A stretch of 62,893 bases of DNA, taken from NCBI RefSeq assembly GCF_025370815.1, contig NZ_JAMXFB010000041.1. One strand, written 5' to 3'. Positions 242 through 3,367 of this stretch are shown here, piece after piece. The notes beneath the pieces were generated by a model. That model saw only the letters and a list, made by a program, of their open reading frames with translations. It did not search any database and was not told the DNA's origin. Position numbers and translations under genes: made by a program. Position 1 is the first letter of the stretch. Every line of letters begins with the position of its first letter. This DNA comes from Laspinema olomoucense D3a. Lineage in GTDB: Bacteria; Cyanobacteriota; Cyanobacteriia; Cyanobacteriales; Laspinemataceae.

Positions 242-2278
242 TTAATTCCAGTTCCCAATTAGAGTAAACGCCGACCAAAAATAAGGGTGAGATAGGTTCG
301 GCGTTTTTTGTTCTACCAATTCCGGTGGGAGGGGGACGGTTTTGCCATTAGAGAGAACTAACATCCCATTTTCTAGGCGCACCTCTCCCCTTAACAGCGC
401 CAGTTGGGTTTGCCGTAAAGCTTCGGCTTTCAGTGGTTTTTCCCCTAATTGGGAATAAAATTCACTCATTAATCCCAGAGTGCCTGCATCGCTAACATAC
501 CAGAAACTGGCTAAGGATGCCTTAGCCCCAGAAAGCACCGCTAACCCCGCAAATCCTAACTCCGCCTCGGTATCTCCTACTGCCGTCCGACAAGCACTTA
601 GGGTTAAGAGTTCAATGGGAGGATTTTGCGAGGTATTCCACCCGAGTTCCGTGGCTAACTCTCGAATTCGGTTGAGTCCGACTCGGCCATCGTAAAACGT
701 GATATAAGAGTTATCCAAATTTCCCCCTTGAAATTCCGCATGAGTTGCCAAATGGATAATTCCAAATTGTTTTTCCTGGTTAATTTGTCGGAAATTAGCG
801 GCAGTGAATTGTTCATTCAAAAAAACAATTCCCTTCCAGGGTTCGCTCACAATATTTTGCAACTCACTAGGTACCGCAGGCAGAGGATTGAGGTTTTCAA
901 AAATAGCAGAACCCATCGCTAACACTTCTCGGTTGCGGATATCGGAATAGGTGACATCAGTTAAGCCAAAACTGGGGACTAAAGCAACGGCATATTTTTC
1001 TATTAAAAACTGTTCGCCATCATGTAATGCCGCCAGGGGAAGGGTTCTCAACCCAGAATCCATCGAAAAAACTAAGGTTTCAATCCCATTAGCTTTCAAT
1101 TGTGCTTCCATTGGAGCAATCAAGGACTGATAGAGTTGTTGGGCGATCGGTAAGTAACTCTGACTGTTTATTCTTCTGGGATTAGTCAGTTCTGCTCGCA
1201 AGTTTTGCACCTGTGCAATCAGCTCTTCCCGAGAGATATTTGGCACGGTTTGGCGAACAGCTACCTCACTCGTTCTCTCAATCAGTCCTTGGGCTAAATC
1301 CGCCGAAGCCACTAAGTCTGAACTGCCCCCGGCTACTCTAAAATTCTGGGGGAAAATCATCACCAGTTCTAATTGCTCTGCTAAGGCTGAGACATAAATA
1401 AATGCACTCTTATTGTCAGTTTCTTGCCACAAATCATACAATTTTTGGGCAATTTCATCGGGAGTCGCCGTTTCCCCCAATAACTCCACCGCTAGATAAT
1501 TGCTAAACTCCATTGCCTGAAATTCTTCCAACATTTGAACCGCCACCCCAACATCAGCAACGGCTAACTGAGTTTCATAACCCGGGCGATCGACTTCTTG
1601 GTCCGATAGGGGAGTCATGGGTTGTGCCTCTTCCGTTGTGCTATCACCCCCTTCGAGAATCTGACCCTCTATCGGATTGGTACTTTCTGTGGTGGGGTCC
1701 GGTTCTGGATTATTCTCACCCACCGTTGGAGGAACTTCCTCCTCACGGGGAACCTGGGGATTCTCCGGGATGACAACCGGGGCGCTGGGTTCGGGCGCTT
1801 GAGTGTTAATTGGTTCAAGGGTTTGAATGGGAATCGGTGCTGGCACTTCCCCTGGGCTGTTAACAGGGATTACTGGGCTATCCCCAGGTGTTTCTGTGGG
1901 AGTCTCTGTGGGAGTTTCTGTGGGAGTTTCTGTGGGAGTTTCTGTGGGAGTCTCTGTGGGAGTCTCTGTGGGAGTTTCTGTGGGAGTTTCTGTGGGAGTT
2001 TCTGTGGGAGTTTCTGTGGGAGTTTCTGTGGGAGTTTCTAAAGGGAGTATATCTCCGCTTGGTATAATTGCAGGAGGCTCTTCCACTGGCGGTTCTTCCA
2101 CAGGAGGCTCTTCTACAGGGGGTTCTTCTACAGGGGGTTCTTCTACAGGTAATACCGGCTCTGGAGTGAGGGGTCCTGTGATATCCGACTGGTTTGTCTG
2201 GGTGATGGCAGGATCAGCAGCGATCGCCACCAATGTCATAGCCAAAACTAATTTCATCCATCCCTTAAACAATTTCAT
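242..2278 (-). CDS. Secreted CHAT-domain (caspase-like) protease with N-terminal Pro-rich (PVEEP)n and (TPTE)n tandem repeats
   Basis: N-terminal signal peptide (MKLFKGWMKLVLAMTLVAIAADP). Low-complexity repeats PVEEP x5 and TETP x ~20. C-terminal CHAT/caspase-fold region with His (IIHLATHAEF) and Cys (LSACRTAVG) dyad motifs. Confidence 0.75.
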   Translation of the reverse strand: MKLFKGWMKLVLAMTLVAIAADPAITQTNQSDITGPLTPEPVLPVEEPPVEEPPVEEPPVEEPPVEEPPAIIPSGDILPLETPTETPTETPTETPTETPTETPTETPTETPTETPTETPTETPTETPTETPGDSPVIPVNSPGEVPAPIPIQTLEPINTQAPEPSAPVVIPENPQVPREEEVPPTVGENNPEPDPTTESTNPIEGQILEGGDSTTEEAQPMTPLSDQEVDRPGYETQLAVADVGVAVQMLEEFQAMEFSNYLAVELLGETATPDEIAQKLYDLWQETDNKSAFIYVSALAEQLELVMIFPQNFRVAGGSSDLVASADLAQGLIERTSEVAVRQTVPNISREELIAQVQNLRAELTNPRRINSQSYLPIAQQLYQSLIAPMEAQLKANGIETLVFSMDSGLRTLPLAALHDGEQFLIEKYAVALVPSFGLTDVTYSDIRNREVLAMGSAIFENLNPLPAVPSELQNIVSEPWKGIVFLNEQFTAANFRQINQEKQFGIIHLATHAEFQGGNLDNSYITFYDGRVGLNRIRELATELGWNTSQNPPIELLTLSACRTAVGDTEAELGFAGLAVLSGAKASLASFWYVSDAGTLGLMSEFYSQLGEKPLKAEALRQTQLALLRGEVRLENGMLVLSNGKTVPLPPELVEQKTPNLSHPYFWSAFTLIGNWN
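1889..2038. repeat. Perfect/near-perfect 12-bp tandem repeat (gtttctgtggga / gtctctgtggga), ~12.5 copies, in-frame inside the CHAT gene (encodes TETP repeats)
   Basis: Direct reading of the sequence: tctgtgggagt unit repeated head-to-tail from ~1889 to ~2038. Confidence 0.9.
2071..2150. repeat. 15-bp tandem repeat (caggrggbtcttcya), 5 copies, in-frame inside the CHAT gene (encodes PVEEP repeats)
   Basis: Direct reading: caggaggctcttcca / ctggcggttcttcca / caggaggctcttcta / cagggggttcttcta x2. Confidence 0.85.
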
Positions 2279-2308
2279 TGTGAGAATCCTTCTCTAAATA
2301 AGCCTGTA

Positions 2309-3367
2309 CTACAACCGATCAAATGTAAACCCATAACCAATCCCCAGAATAAACCGAGTGCCATCTCCAGCACTTCCGGTGATGTCCGTAATCGCGGGAG
2401 AAATCACCAAAGGAATATTCCGAAACGGCACCAGGGAAACCCCCAAAGTGAGGTCCTGACCCGTCCATTCGGCGATCGCACTCACGGGAGGAGCAACCCG
2501 TACTGCCACTGAGCCAAACAGCCCTACAGTCCCCTCTCCCGCCTGGATATCCGACTCAGAGCGGTATTGTCCACCCCCGACCCCCAGGGTCAGATACAAT
2601 TGGCTCCAAAGGTTCTCGGGGTCATCCAAAACAAACCGTTTCGTCACCACGCCATACCCAGAGGTCCCGCCATCGGTTTCTCCCCAAGTGAGCGCTCCTT
2701 GTACCCCTGCCGCAATGCCAAAATCATTGGGCAATTGTCGGTGCAATTTTAAGCTGACACTGCCATCCTCGAAGGCATCACCCCATAAATCCGTTACCGT
2801 TATACCAACAGTTAAGCCAATATTTTCCCGAGGATTTCCAAACCCGATGCCGAATCCACCAACCCCATCGCTAGTATCCGTAAACCGAGTTCGTTCCTGT
2901 AAACCTAGTCCAAATCCCGCACTTCCCCAACCCGCACCATAACCGGAGGGAGTCATCACCGTAATCGCCGGAGAAGCCAAATAGGGTTTGCTTTGAGTGG
3001 TAAGATCCATGCGAGGACGAAACGGGATGCGTTCGGGAATGAAGGGTTGTTCCCCCGGGGTCCCCCGATGTAAGGGAGTCCCTTGGCGGGGGGTCGTTCC
3101 CTCCGGTGTTGTGGAGGGTTCCCCTTGGGCGATCTCACCTTGGGGGTGAACCGTCCCCTCCCCGGCATCCGGTTTAGGAAAAAGGACCTCAGTGCGATCG
3201 CCCGGAAGGGGTTGGAAAAATAAAGGCTCCAGATTAGCAGCATTAGCAGCAAATTCCAGCTTTTCCCCGAACCCTTCTGCTTGCCAGGGTTCTACCTCGC
3301 CCGCTTGGGCGACATCAGGGGGGAATAAAATCCCGAGGAGCAGTAATTCAACGATCATACATTTCAT
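2309..3367 (-). CDS. Secreted Gly-rich protein with predicted C-terminal beta-barrel (outer-membrane-protein-like); immediately upstream of the CHAT gene on the same strand (30-bp gap)
   Basis: Signal peptide (MKCMIVELLLLGILFPPDVAQA). Pro-rich linker. C-terminal ~220 aa of alternating Gly/aromatic/hydrophilic residues (GYGAGWGSAGFGLGLQ...GIGYGFTF) typical of beta-barrel OMPs. Family not identified. Confidence 0.45.
   Translation of the reverse strand: MKCMIVELLLLGILFPPDVAQAGEVEPWQAEGFGEKLEFAANAANLEPLFFQPLPGDRTEVLFPKPDAGEGTVHPQGEIAQGEPSTTPEGTTPRQGTPLHRGTPGEQPFIPERIPFRPRMDLTTQSKPYLASPAITVMTPSGYGAGWGSAGFGLGLQERTRFTDTSDGVGGFGIGFGNPRENIGLTVGITVTDLWGDAFEDGSVSLKLHRQLPNDFGIAAGVQGALTWGETDGGTSGYGVVTKRFVLDDPENLWSQLYLTLGVGGGQYRSESDIQAGEGTVGLFGSVAVRVAPPVSAIAEWTGQDLTLGVSLVPFRNIPLVISPAITDITGSAGDGTRFILGIGYGFTFDRL

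Follow-up and report, generated by a model that had tools for sequence, protein, structure and literature searches.

A cyanobacterial beta-barrel gene followed by a gene for a tagged CHAT protease: a candidate cognate outer-membrane pair in Laspinema olomoucense

Background

Do two adjacent genes of the cyanobacterium Laspinema olomoucense D3a, one for a protein with a barrel-like sequence and the other for a CHAT (caspase-like) protease carrying two tandem-repeat arrays, work together, and what are the repeats for? The genes occupy positions 242–3367 of a 62,893-nucleotide (nt) stretch of contig NZ_JAMXFB010000041.1, which was analysed at its full length and is called the window below. A first-pass annotation of this stretch took them for an operon that may be an export or anchoring unit for the protease, and read the repeats as recent expansions. 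Our answer, which we consider rather probable, is that the two-gene operon encodes a cognate outer-membrane pair: a short tag at the N-terminus of the mature protease would dock it to the barrel for export or anchoring, and the repeats would serve as a spacer.

How proteins cross the outer membrane of cyanobacteria is poorly known, and to our knowledge few routes are known beyond the TolC-type, pilus-type and two-partner systems. A description of the barrel family, of the tag or of the pairing was not found in the literature.

Results

Pairing of the two genes

Both open reading frames (ORFs) lie on the minus strand, 30 nt apart, exactly where the first-pass annotation had placed them (Table 1). 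The pairing scan took one genome per species and returned 279 loci, of which 80 were kept; loci and proteins are cited by L and P numbers, respectively, where they have to be told apart. Of the 64 loci whose downstream sequence is long enough, about 62 have a CHAT orthologue (41–89% identity) after the barrel gene on the same strand, and the intergenic spacers across loci are typically 9–67 nt long. Where at least 300 nt could be read downstream of a barrel gene, a tagged ORF, i.e., one that begins with a signal peptide and the tag described below, follows in 138 of 153 cases. A CHAT domain is recognisable in 82 of these ORFs; of the other 56, many break off at a contig end, and about 30 encode full-length proteins that are not CHAT proteases. 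The partners include CHAT proteases as well as small proteins of at least three unrelated classes.

As a control, the tag pattern was sought near the start of all ORFs of at least 100 amino acids (aa) in all loci. It is present in 98 of the 1380 ORFs and, by inspection, all but about five of the 98 are directly downstream of a barrel gene. One contig (L148) has two different barrel-partner pairs in tandem, and a barrel with S-layer homology (SLH) domains (P0251) is also followed by a tagged CHAT gene. When the flanking ORFs of all loci were clustered, the barrel and partner genes alone proved broadly conserved.

The N-terminal tag

In 61 of 65 CHAT partners, an invariant Gln (residue 26–27) is followed by [ST]-G-N-[QM]-S-D-[IV]-T-x-P-[ND]-P-x-E-[IV]; the copy in the window, QTNQSDITGP, lacks the consensus Gly. 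The residues ahead of the Gln in the 61 orthologues (A, S, T or N at -1; V, A, G or S at -3) are as expected for cleavage by signal peptidase I, which makes the Gln the predicted first residue of the mature protein. In the core N-x-S-D-x-T-G, the N, S, D, T and G are nearly invariant. Three to five tandem tag units (NLSDVTGP NLSDVTGP ...) are found in L168 (4121–4627), L169 (3110–3625), L166 (5548–6111), L135 and L147. The core also holds N-x-S, a glycosylation-type sequon, which raises the question of whether the tag is modified.

The non-CHAT partners stand downstream of paralogous barrels and start, just as the CHAT partners do, with a signal peptide and then the tag; hence the tag belongs to the "gene after the barrel" and not to the CHAT proteins. 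These partners are 137–149, about 205, 284 or 343 aa long, and no Pfam domain is found in any of them. After the signal peptide, the 137-aa partner of L082 reads AQPFPNLSDISGTN, the 146-aa partners of L083 and L084 read AQPNQSDTSGTN, and the 204-aa partner of L085 reads AQNGNQSDITGPIP. The 187-aa partner of L166 has three tag repeats, and the partners of L168 and L169 (168–171 aa) have five tandem tags, their sequence after the signal peptide being AQNQSDVTGPNLSDVTGPNLSDVTGP... A metagenome scan gave a further class of about 205 aa (AQSGNQSDITG.I.TTSDI.GG), along with the 284-aa and 343-aa partners. In L136 (2830–4349) the same 343-aa tagged ORF is present on both strands as an inverted duplicate, probably an assembly artefact. 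In Microcystis, the tagged partner of about 200 aa (L149–L165; P0386–P0505) shows 75–100% identity among strains, a high diversity for so close a genus; this would agree with surface exposure and diversifying selection.

The barrel protein

The barrel protein has 984 homologues, and all those named in their source are called "hypothetical". The named source organisms are all cyanobacteria, except for metagenome-assembled genomes that look misbinned. The C-terminal 250 residues are 55–60% identical across orders. Compared with 1.84 billion cluster representatives, a profile of the barrel matched 1104 clusters (at 50% identity), always with the barrel at the C-terminus, and the family ranges from Microcystis to Nostocales, Oscillatoriales and Pleurocapsales. 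For the 352-aa protein, no match was found in Pfam or NCBIfam. Scanning 39 homologues singly gave no credible family (the best was DUF3996, E 0.016, in 3 of the 39), and the profile search of all Protein Data Bank (PDB) sequences gave chance matches only (E above 1).

The first-pass suggestion of a beta-barrel was supported. AlphaFold2 models residues 149–348 as 12 beta-strands with a predicted local distance difference test (pLDDT) of 80–90, and the amphipathic Gly/aromatic pattern seen earlier in the C-terminal half is real: hydrophobic residues alternate with polar ones or Gly in every predicted strand. Residues 1–148 are not confidently modelled (pLDDT below 50). The figures in our table of barrel comparisons are 14.0 for FapF, 13.1 for KdgM, 12.8 for the COG4313 channel, 12.6 for NalP, 12.5 for Hbp, 12.2 for NanC, 11.8 for BrkA, 11.5 for AIDA-I, 10.9 for LpxR and 10.5 for intimin.

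Conservation in the barrel is 0.76–0.99 on the polar/Gly face of the lumen, versus 0.48–0.64 on the lipid face. The most conserved parts are the predicted extracellular loops L3, L5 and L6 (0.84–1.0), which is unusual; L6 is the most conserved loop. The string DITG is common to the partner tag (SDITGP, 2171–2200) and to L6 (TDITGSAGDG, residues 328–337, 2324–2353). Chance may account for the match, unless it hints at mimicry or strand exchange.

The N-termini of the homologues are hydrophobic, as in the window protein. Behind the signal peptide is a variable region whose position is occupied by two or three SLH domains in some family members: SLH domains precede the barrel in 8 of 10 and in 13 of 70 long family members, and also in one CHAT-paired orthologue. 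The Pfam scan of the window protein found no SLH domain. The fusions place the N-terminus of the barrel in the periplasm, as expected for an outer-membrane protein. In one long family member the alignment shows a DUF928 domain fused N-terminally to the barrel. The conserved segment just ahead of the barrel (residues 103–148) has invariant P111, P115, P133, P140, S141 and G144, and AlphaFold2 confidence is low there; the segment might serve as a plug or for docking in the periplasm. A C-terminal Phe is the usual signal for barrel assembly. It is the last residue in 62 of 80 barrel orthologues, and the window protein ends with a short FDRL extension.

The CHAT protease

The identity of the downstream protein as a CHAT protease, proposed in the first pass, was confirmed: Pfam CHAT (PF12770) covers residues 377–676 (251–1150) with E 9e-64 and 216.1 bits against a cut-off of 24. 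The protein has 646 homologues. The AlphaFold2 model of residues 218–678 has a pLDDT of 87.6 and a predicted TM-score (pTM) of 0.89, and Foldseek relates it to Csx29/TPR-CHAT (E 8.7e-14), separase (2e-7) and the periplasmic TPR-CHAT of the anti-sigma factor DdvA (5e-7), as well as to SAVED-CHAT. In the alignment of 41 sequences, H509, H513 and C563 are invariant. The N-termini of both the barrel protein and the CHAT protein are signal-peptide-like, as had been said of both earlier. Judging from these sequence features, the CHAT protein is probably an exported, active protease.

Repeat arrays and spacer

About 190 residues separate the signal peptide from the protease, with 25% Pro, 19% Glu and 19% Thr. 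Tandem Repeats Finder (TRF) agrees with the first-pass annotation that both arrays in this region are in frame and built of 12-bp and 15-bp units; the copies, claimed to be perfect, are not, since the DNA units match at 97% and 85%, respectively. The 12-bp units come in three versions (eight of ACAGAAACTCCC, three of ACAGAGACTCCC and one of ACAGAAACACCT), and the five 15-bp units in four. All 13 unit-to-unit differences in the two arrays are synonymous; hence only at the peptide level is repetition perfect.

Across the CHAT partners, the low-complexity repeats differ by lineage, and all that precedes the protease core, i.e., signal peptide, tag and spacer together, takes up from about 54 to about 1014 residues. 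The arrays were compared in eight measurable close relatives, in which the core is 81–89% identical; the closest available sequences are only 85–90% identical and represent other species, not strains. The first array position has PVEEP, PVDPV, PEEPL, PPAPPPE[EA] or nothing, and the second has TETP, TDTP or TPDTTTD. A further relative (L008) has TP repeats, and its arrays could not be delimited. Array 1 is 8–55 aa and array 2 is 28–60 aa long, and the summed lengths are 87, 88, 86, 88 and 83 aa or 60, 60 and 57 aa, a shorter array being compensated by a longer one (e.g., 28+60, 55+28 and 36+51 aa). The distal spacer is 97 aa long in seven of the eight relatives.

Genes near the pair and other features of the window

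Table 1. Features of the gene pair (positions are those of the window; aa, amino acids of the respective protein)
Feature	Position	Strand	Basis or comment
Barrel-protein gene, uncharacterised cyanobacterial family	2309..3367	-	ORF, 352 aa
Barrel signal peptide, aa 1–22, MKCMIVELLLLGILFPPDVAQA	3302..3367	-	hydrophobic core, then A-Q-A site
Variable disordered N-terminal region, predicted periplasmic, aa 23–102	3062..3301	-	pLDDT below 50; unalignable among homologues
Conserved pre-barrel segment, aa 103–148	2924..3061	-	F-x-P-x-R-I-P ... SP-x-IT-x-x-PSGYG
Predicted 12-stranded beta-barrel domain, aa 149–348	2324..2923	-	AlphaFold2
Intergenic spacer, operon junction	2279..2308	-	30 nt with AGGA Shine-Dalgarno-like motif ahead of the second ATG
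Gene for exported CHAT protein, partner of the barrel	242..2278	-	ORF, 678 aa; Pfam CHAT
CHAT protein signal peptide, aa 1–26	2201..2278	-	predicted cleavage before Gln27
Mature N-terminal tag QTNQSDITGP, aa 27–36	2171..2200	-	motif statistics
(PVEEP)5 array, aa 44–68, 15-bp units	2075..2149	-	TRF array 2071–2149, 5.3 copies, 85% matches
(TETP)12 array, aa 84–131, 12-bp units	1886..2029	-	TRF array 1890–2039, 12.5 copies, 97% matches, score 279
Distal Pro-rich spacer without repeats, aa 132–228	1595..1885	-	close-relative comparison
Globular separase/Csx29-like protease module, aa 229–678	245..1594	-	AlphaFold2 and Foldseek
Catalytic His513 codon (IHLATHAEF)	740..742	-	invariant in 41 sequences
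Catalytic Cys563 codon (LSACRTAVG)	590..592	-	invariant in 41 sequences; the only Cys of the protein

The promoter scan of the minus strand gave one promoter-like site (3485–3456), at chance level, and the matches of the terminator scan within the arrays were dismissed as repeat artefacts. No second barrel, CHAT or tagged gene was found by searching the rest of the window.

Several genes recur near barrels of particular lineages. A COP23-family gene (PF14218, about 172 aa, secreted) immediately precedes the barrel gene, with the same orientation, in 36 loci (among L018–L080, e.g., L018 2830–3345), which appear to be mostly of the Pleurocapsales type. It was dropped as a universal third component, as it occurs there in these loci and is absent from the window. 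In L085 (160–1029), COP23 is near an SLH-barrel paralogue preceded by a trypsin-like/TPR protease. The barrels with 137–171-aa partners are followed by a third conserved gene for a protein of about 200–247 aa, which has a signal peptide, then ELFGNQGI..., and a weak DUF4114 match (E 2e-5; L082 7616–8323, L083 7813–8556, L168 4680–5357, L169 3716–4324). Some paralogous barrels with tagged partners are found inside polysaccharide-export clusters (L083 2605–12274; L084; L166 1–2552). One such cluster has a Wzz/BY-kinase gene upstream and genes for a Wzm/Wzt ABC exporter and a glycosyltransferase downstream; in L166 the barrel gene is divergent from a gene with SLH and Poly_export/SLBB domains (Wza-like).

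Divergent from the window barrel gene is a gene for a full-length major vault protein homologue of 882 aa (3698–6346, plus strand), with Pfam Vault repeats and the MVP shoulder. Vault protein homologues in Oscillatoriales were reported previously (bioRxiv 10.1101/872010; PMC3762200). The gene is next to the barrel in the Laspinema/Oscillatoria relatives L001–L007 (92–96% identity) and not beyond this clade, and it was dropped as a part of the unit.

Elsewhere in the window, an 84-aa ORF overlapping a 138-aa PIN-domain protein (6585–7252, plus strand) looks like a VapBC-type toxin-antitoxin module. An 892-aa exoprotein of the filamentous-haemagglutinin type (19155–21833, minus strand) has a genuine TPS domain (PF05860); no TpsB-type gene was recognised next to it, and the downstream 597-aa ORF (17205–18998) has no Pfam match. 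A hybrid sensor kinase of 2389 aa (40676–47845, plus strand; dCache, HAMP, about nine PAS, GAF, HisKA/HATPase and receiver domains) precedes another hybrid kinase (48098–50200, plus strand), which has two receiver domains. An AAA_21/AAA_15 ATPase of the AbiEii/OLD-like family (27355–28500, minus strand) overlaps a 212-aa ORF (26750–27388); they may be a defence gene pair.

Discussion

How the pair could work

We presume that the barrel protein and its partner would both cross the inner membrane by Sec, and that the barrel would then insert into the outer membrane with its N-terminus in the periplasm. Cleavage of the signal peptide would free the N-terminal tag of the partner, Q-x-(G)-N-x-S-D-x-T-G-P, which could dock to the barrel either in its Gly-lined lumen or on the conserved loops. 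The barrel with the docked partner would export it, retain it at the outer membrane, or both. The Pro/Thr/Glu spacer of about 190 residues would be an extended stalk that sets the distance between the membrane and the protease, and the repeat arrays would be the route by which its length and composition turn over between lineages, with no switching of expression on and off. The very wide range of stalk lengths, as well as the spread of identity of the Microcystis partner, argues for an extracellular rather than a periplasmic stalk, which is not a proof.

Comparison with known systems

Barrels that handle a dedicated partner in the outer membrane are known in kind, and a new pathway of export or display is a serious possibility here. 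FapF, which secretes functional amyloid in Pseudomonas, is a 12-stranded barrel whose substrates pass unfolded, and the autotransporters, like FapF, are 12-stranded barrels passing an unfolded polypeptide (PMC5557850). Judging from the model, the likeness of the window barrel to both is one of fold only, namely, a predicted 12-stranded transmembrane beta-barrel. Unlike FapF, it has no sequence homology (by the profile search of PDB sequences and Pfam) and no predicted trimerising coiled coil or plug helix, although a plug is not fully excludable in residues 1–148, where the pLDDT is below 50. There are no fap genes nearby, the neighbours being the CHAT gene and the major vault protein gene. 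FapD, the periplasmic cysteine protease of the FapF system, is of the C39 type, whereas the protease of the window has the CHAT caspase fold and is itself the tagged partner. The type Va autotransporters (NalP, Hbp, BrkA and AIDA-I) are single polypeptides, whereas here two ORFs each have a signal peptide, and the window barrel has no match to Pfam Autotransporter PF03797. The inverse autotransporters (intimin) are also named under type V; in the window, the barrel and the functional protein are separate polypeptides. The type Vb TpsB proteins are 16-stranded Omp85 barrels with POTRA domains, unlike the window barrel, which has no ShlB match; the TpsA proteins have a TPS domain of 250 residues (PF05860), whereas the partner here has a tag of about 10 residues and CHAT was the only domain found in it.

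The mode of docking may be compared with the curli secretion channel CsgG and its accessory protein CsgF. The first 27 residues of mature CsgF line the channel, and CsgF depends on CsgG for reaching the surface (PMC7304575). The likeness is a Sec-exported partner with a conserved mature N-terminus, which in CsgF binds in the channel lumen while the rest projects outward. However, CsgG is a nonameric lipoprotein with a 36-stranded pore, whereas the window barrel is predicted as a single chain of 12 strands; the two are unrelated in sequence, and docking in our case is inferred. The protease shares Pfam CHAT, the His-Cys dyad and the two-lobed fold with Csx29/TPR-CHAT (Craspase), separase and DdvA. 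DdvA, whose CHAT domain is periplasmic (PMC11506125), shows that a CHAT module is able to function outside the cytoplasm on a flexible linker. The window protein differs in that it has no TPR, no CRISPR or sigma-factor context and no transmembrane helix; it carries the signal peptide, the tag and the repeat spacer instead. With OmpM of diderm Firmicutes and the cyanobacterial SLH-OprB porins, some members of our barrel family share the order of two or three SLH domains, linker and C-terminal barrel, but the window barrel has 12 strands, no SLH domain and no relation to them in sequence. We know of no tagged-partner gene for the SLH-OprB or OmpM families.

Points against the proposed pair and rival explanations

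Several points weigh against a cognate pair of this kind. Two barrel loci (L046 and L051) have no downstream CHAT gene, and for about 10% of the barrels a tagged neighbour is not recognisable. Visual inspection and the -3/-1 rule served to assign the signal peptides and the cleavage site, and localisation or proteomic data for such proteins were not found in the literature. The lumen of a preformed 12-stranded barrel is narrow; a protease domain of 450 residues would have to stay unfolded on its way through, and the energy source is not obvious. The conserved extracellular loops could mean an enzymatic or ligand-binding barrel instead, and the barrels of the polysaccharide-export clusters could serve another transport function.

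The main rival explanation keeps the whole system in the periplasm. The barrel would then be a channel or a tether between the outer membrane and the cell wall (a porin, a polysaccharide-related or an SLH-type protein), and the tagged proteins would be its periplasmic plug, gate or regulatory subunits; the leashed protease would cleave proteins of the envelope, perhaps its own spacer or the disordered stretch at the N-terminus of the barrel protein, much as FapD acts in the FapF system or as in the proposed self-cleavage of the DdvA linker. This explanation agrees with the periplasmic CHAT domain of DdvA, whose active site faces a flexible linker, with the requirement of the FapF system for a periplasmic cysteine protease, and with the long, protease-reachable disordered N-terminal regions of both the barrel and the partner. 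The Wzc/Wza/Wzm-Wzt genes adjoining some paralogues point the same way, as do the SLH fusions, by which the family can be a cell-wall tether. Yet a spacer of about 54 to about 1014 residues is hard to square with a fixed width of the periplasm, the small non-protease partners share the tag, which makes its link to the barrel independent of proteolysis, and the variation of the Microcystis partner between strains is a better fit to surface exposure. We regard the periplasmic alternative as somewhat unlikely. The tag might also be read by a machine other than the barrel, e.g., a modifying enzyme or a sorting machine, the barrel and the partner being merely co-regulated envelope neighbours. The near-invariance of the tag core and its tandem units, as for a modification or binding module, would suit this; however, a tagged gene adjoins the barrel gene in about 90% of loci, in at least four unrelated partner classes, several barrel subfamilies and the two tandem pairs of one contig, and no third gene is conserved across the classes (the COP23 and DUF4114-like genes being lineage- or class-specific). 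We consider such a separate reader very improbable.

As to the repeats, they could be recent neutral slipped-strand expansions or a contingency locus, mere low-complexity filler. The identity of 8 of the 12 12-bp units speaks for it, and so do the units and copy numbers that differ at the same two sites in close relatives. The first-pass argument from perfect copies to recent expansion is not supported: the 15-bp units are only 85% alike, which is not recent, and the synonymy of all 13 differences indicates selection on the peptide rather than fresh neutral expansion. The units being in frame, slippage is unable to switch expression off. Moreover, the summed array length clusters at 83–88 or 57–60 aa in the eight relatives, the arrays compensating each other, and a constrained spacer fits this better than free slippage does. 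Neutral expansion is therefore unlikely in our opinion. The clustering, together with the synonymous differences, suggests selection on the length and composition of the spacer while the arrays turn over; this is a lead only, as the sample is small and partly structured by phylogeny.

Conclusions

A barrel that docks its partner by the tag thus remains the explanation we prefer for the pair in the window. A broader proposal, to which we give less credence and which is possible rather than probable, is an as yet undescribed outer-membrane pathway of export or display, widespread in cyanobacteria and built as a minimal "two-partner" system: the barrel would read the tag of about 10 residues and place diverse cargo at or beyond the surface, the pairs having diversified by duplication. 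Among the cargo would be CHAT proteases, with stalks that differ in length, and small proteins of several families whose function is unknown.

A simple rule that can be tested holds for the family: the barrel gene is followed by a gene for a protein that begins with a short conserved tag. If this tag serves as an address label, it would become possible to predict a class of envelope or surface proteins in bloom- and mat-forming cyanobacteria, and a handle for the display of proteins on cyanobacterial cells would be available. It would also put caspase-like CHAT proteases outside the cytoplasm, where the candidate substrates include neighbouring cells, the tethers of the sheath or cell wall, and phage. 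The repeat arrays are a natural experiment in which the length of a linker is maintained while its sequence turns over.

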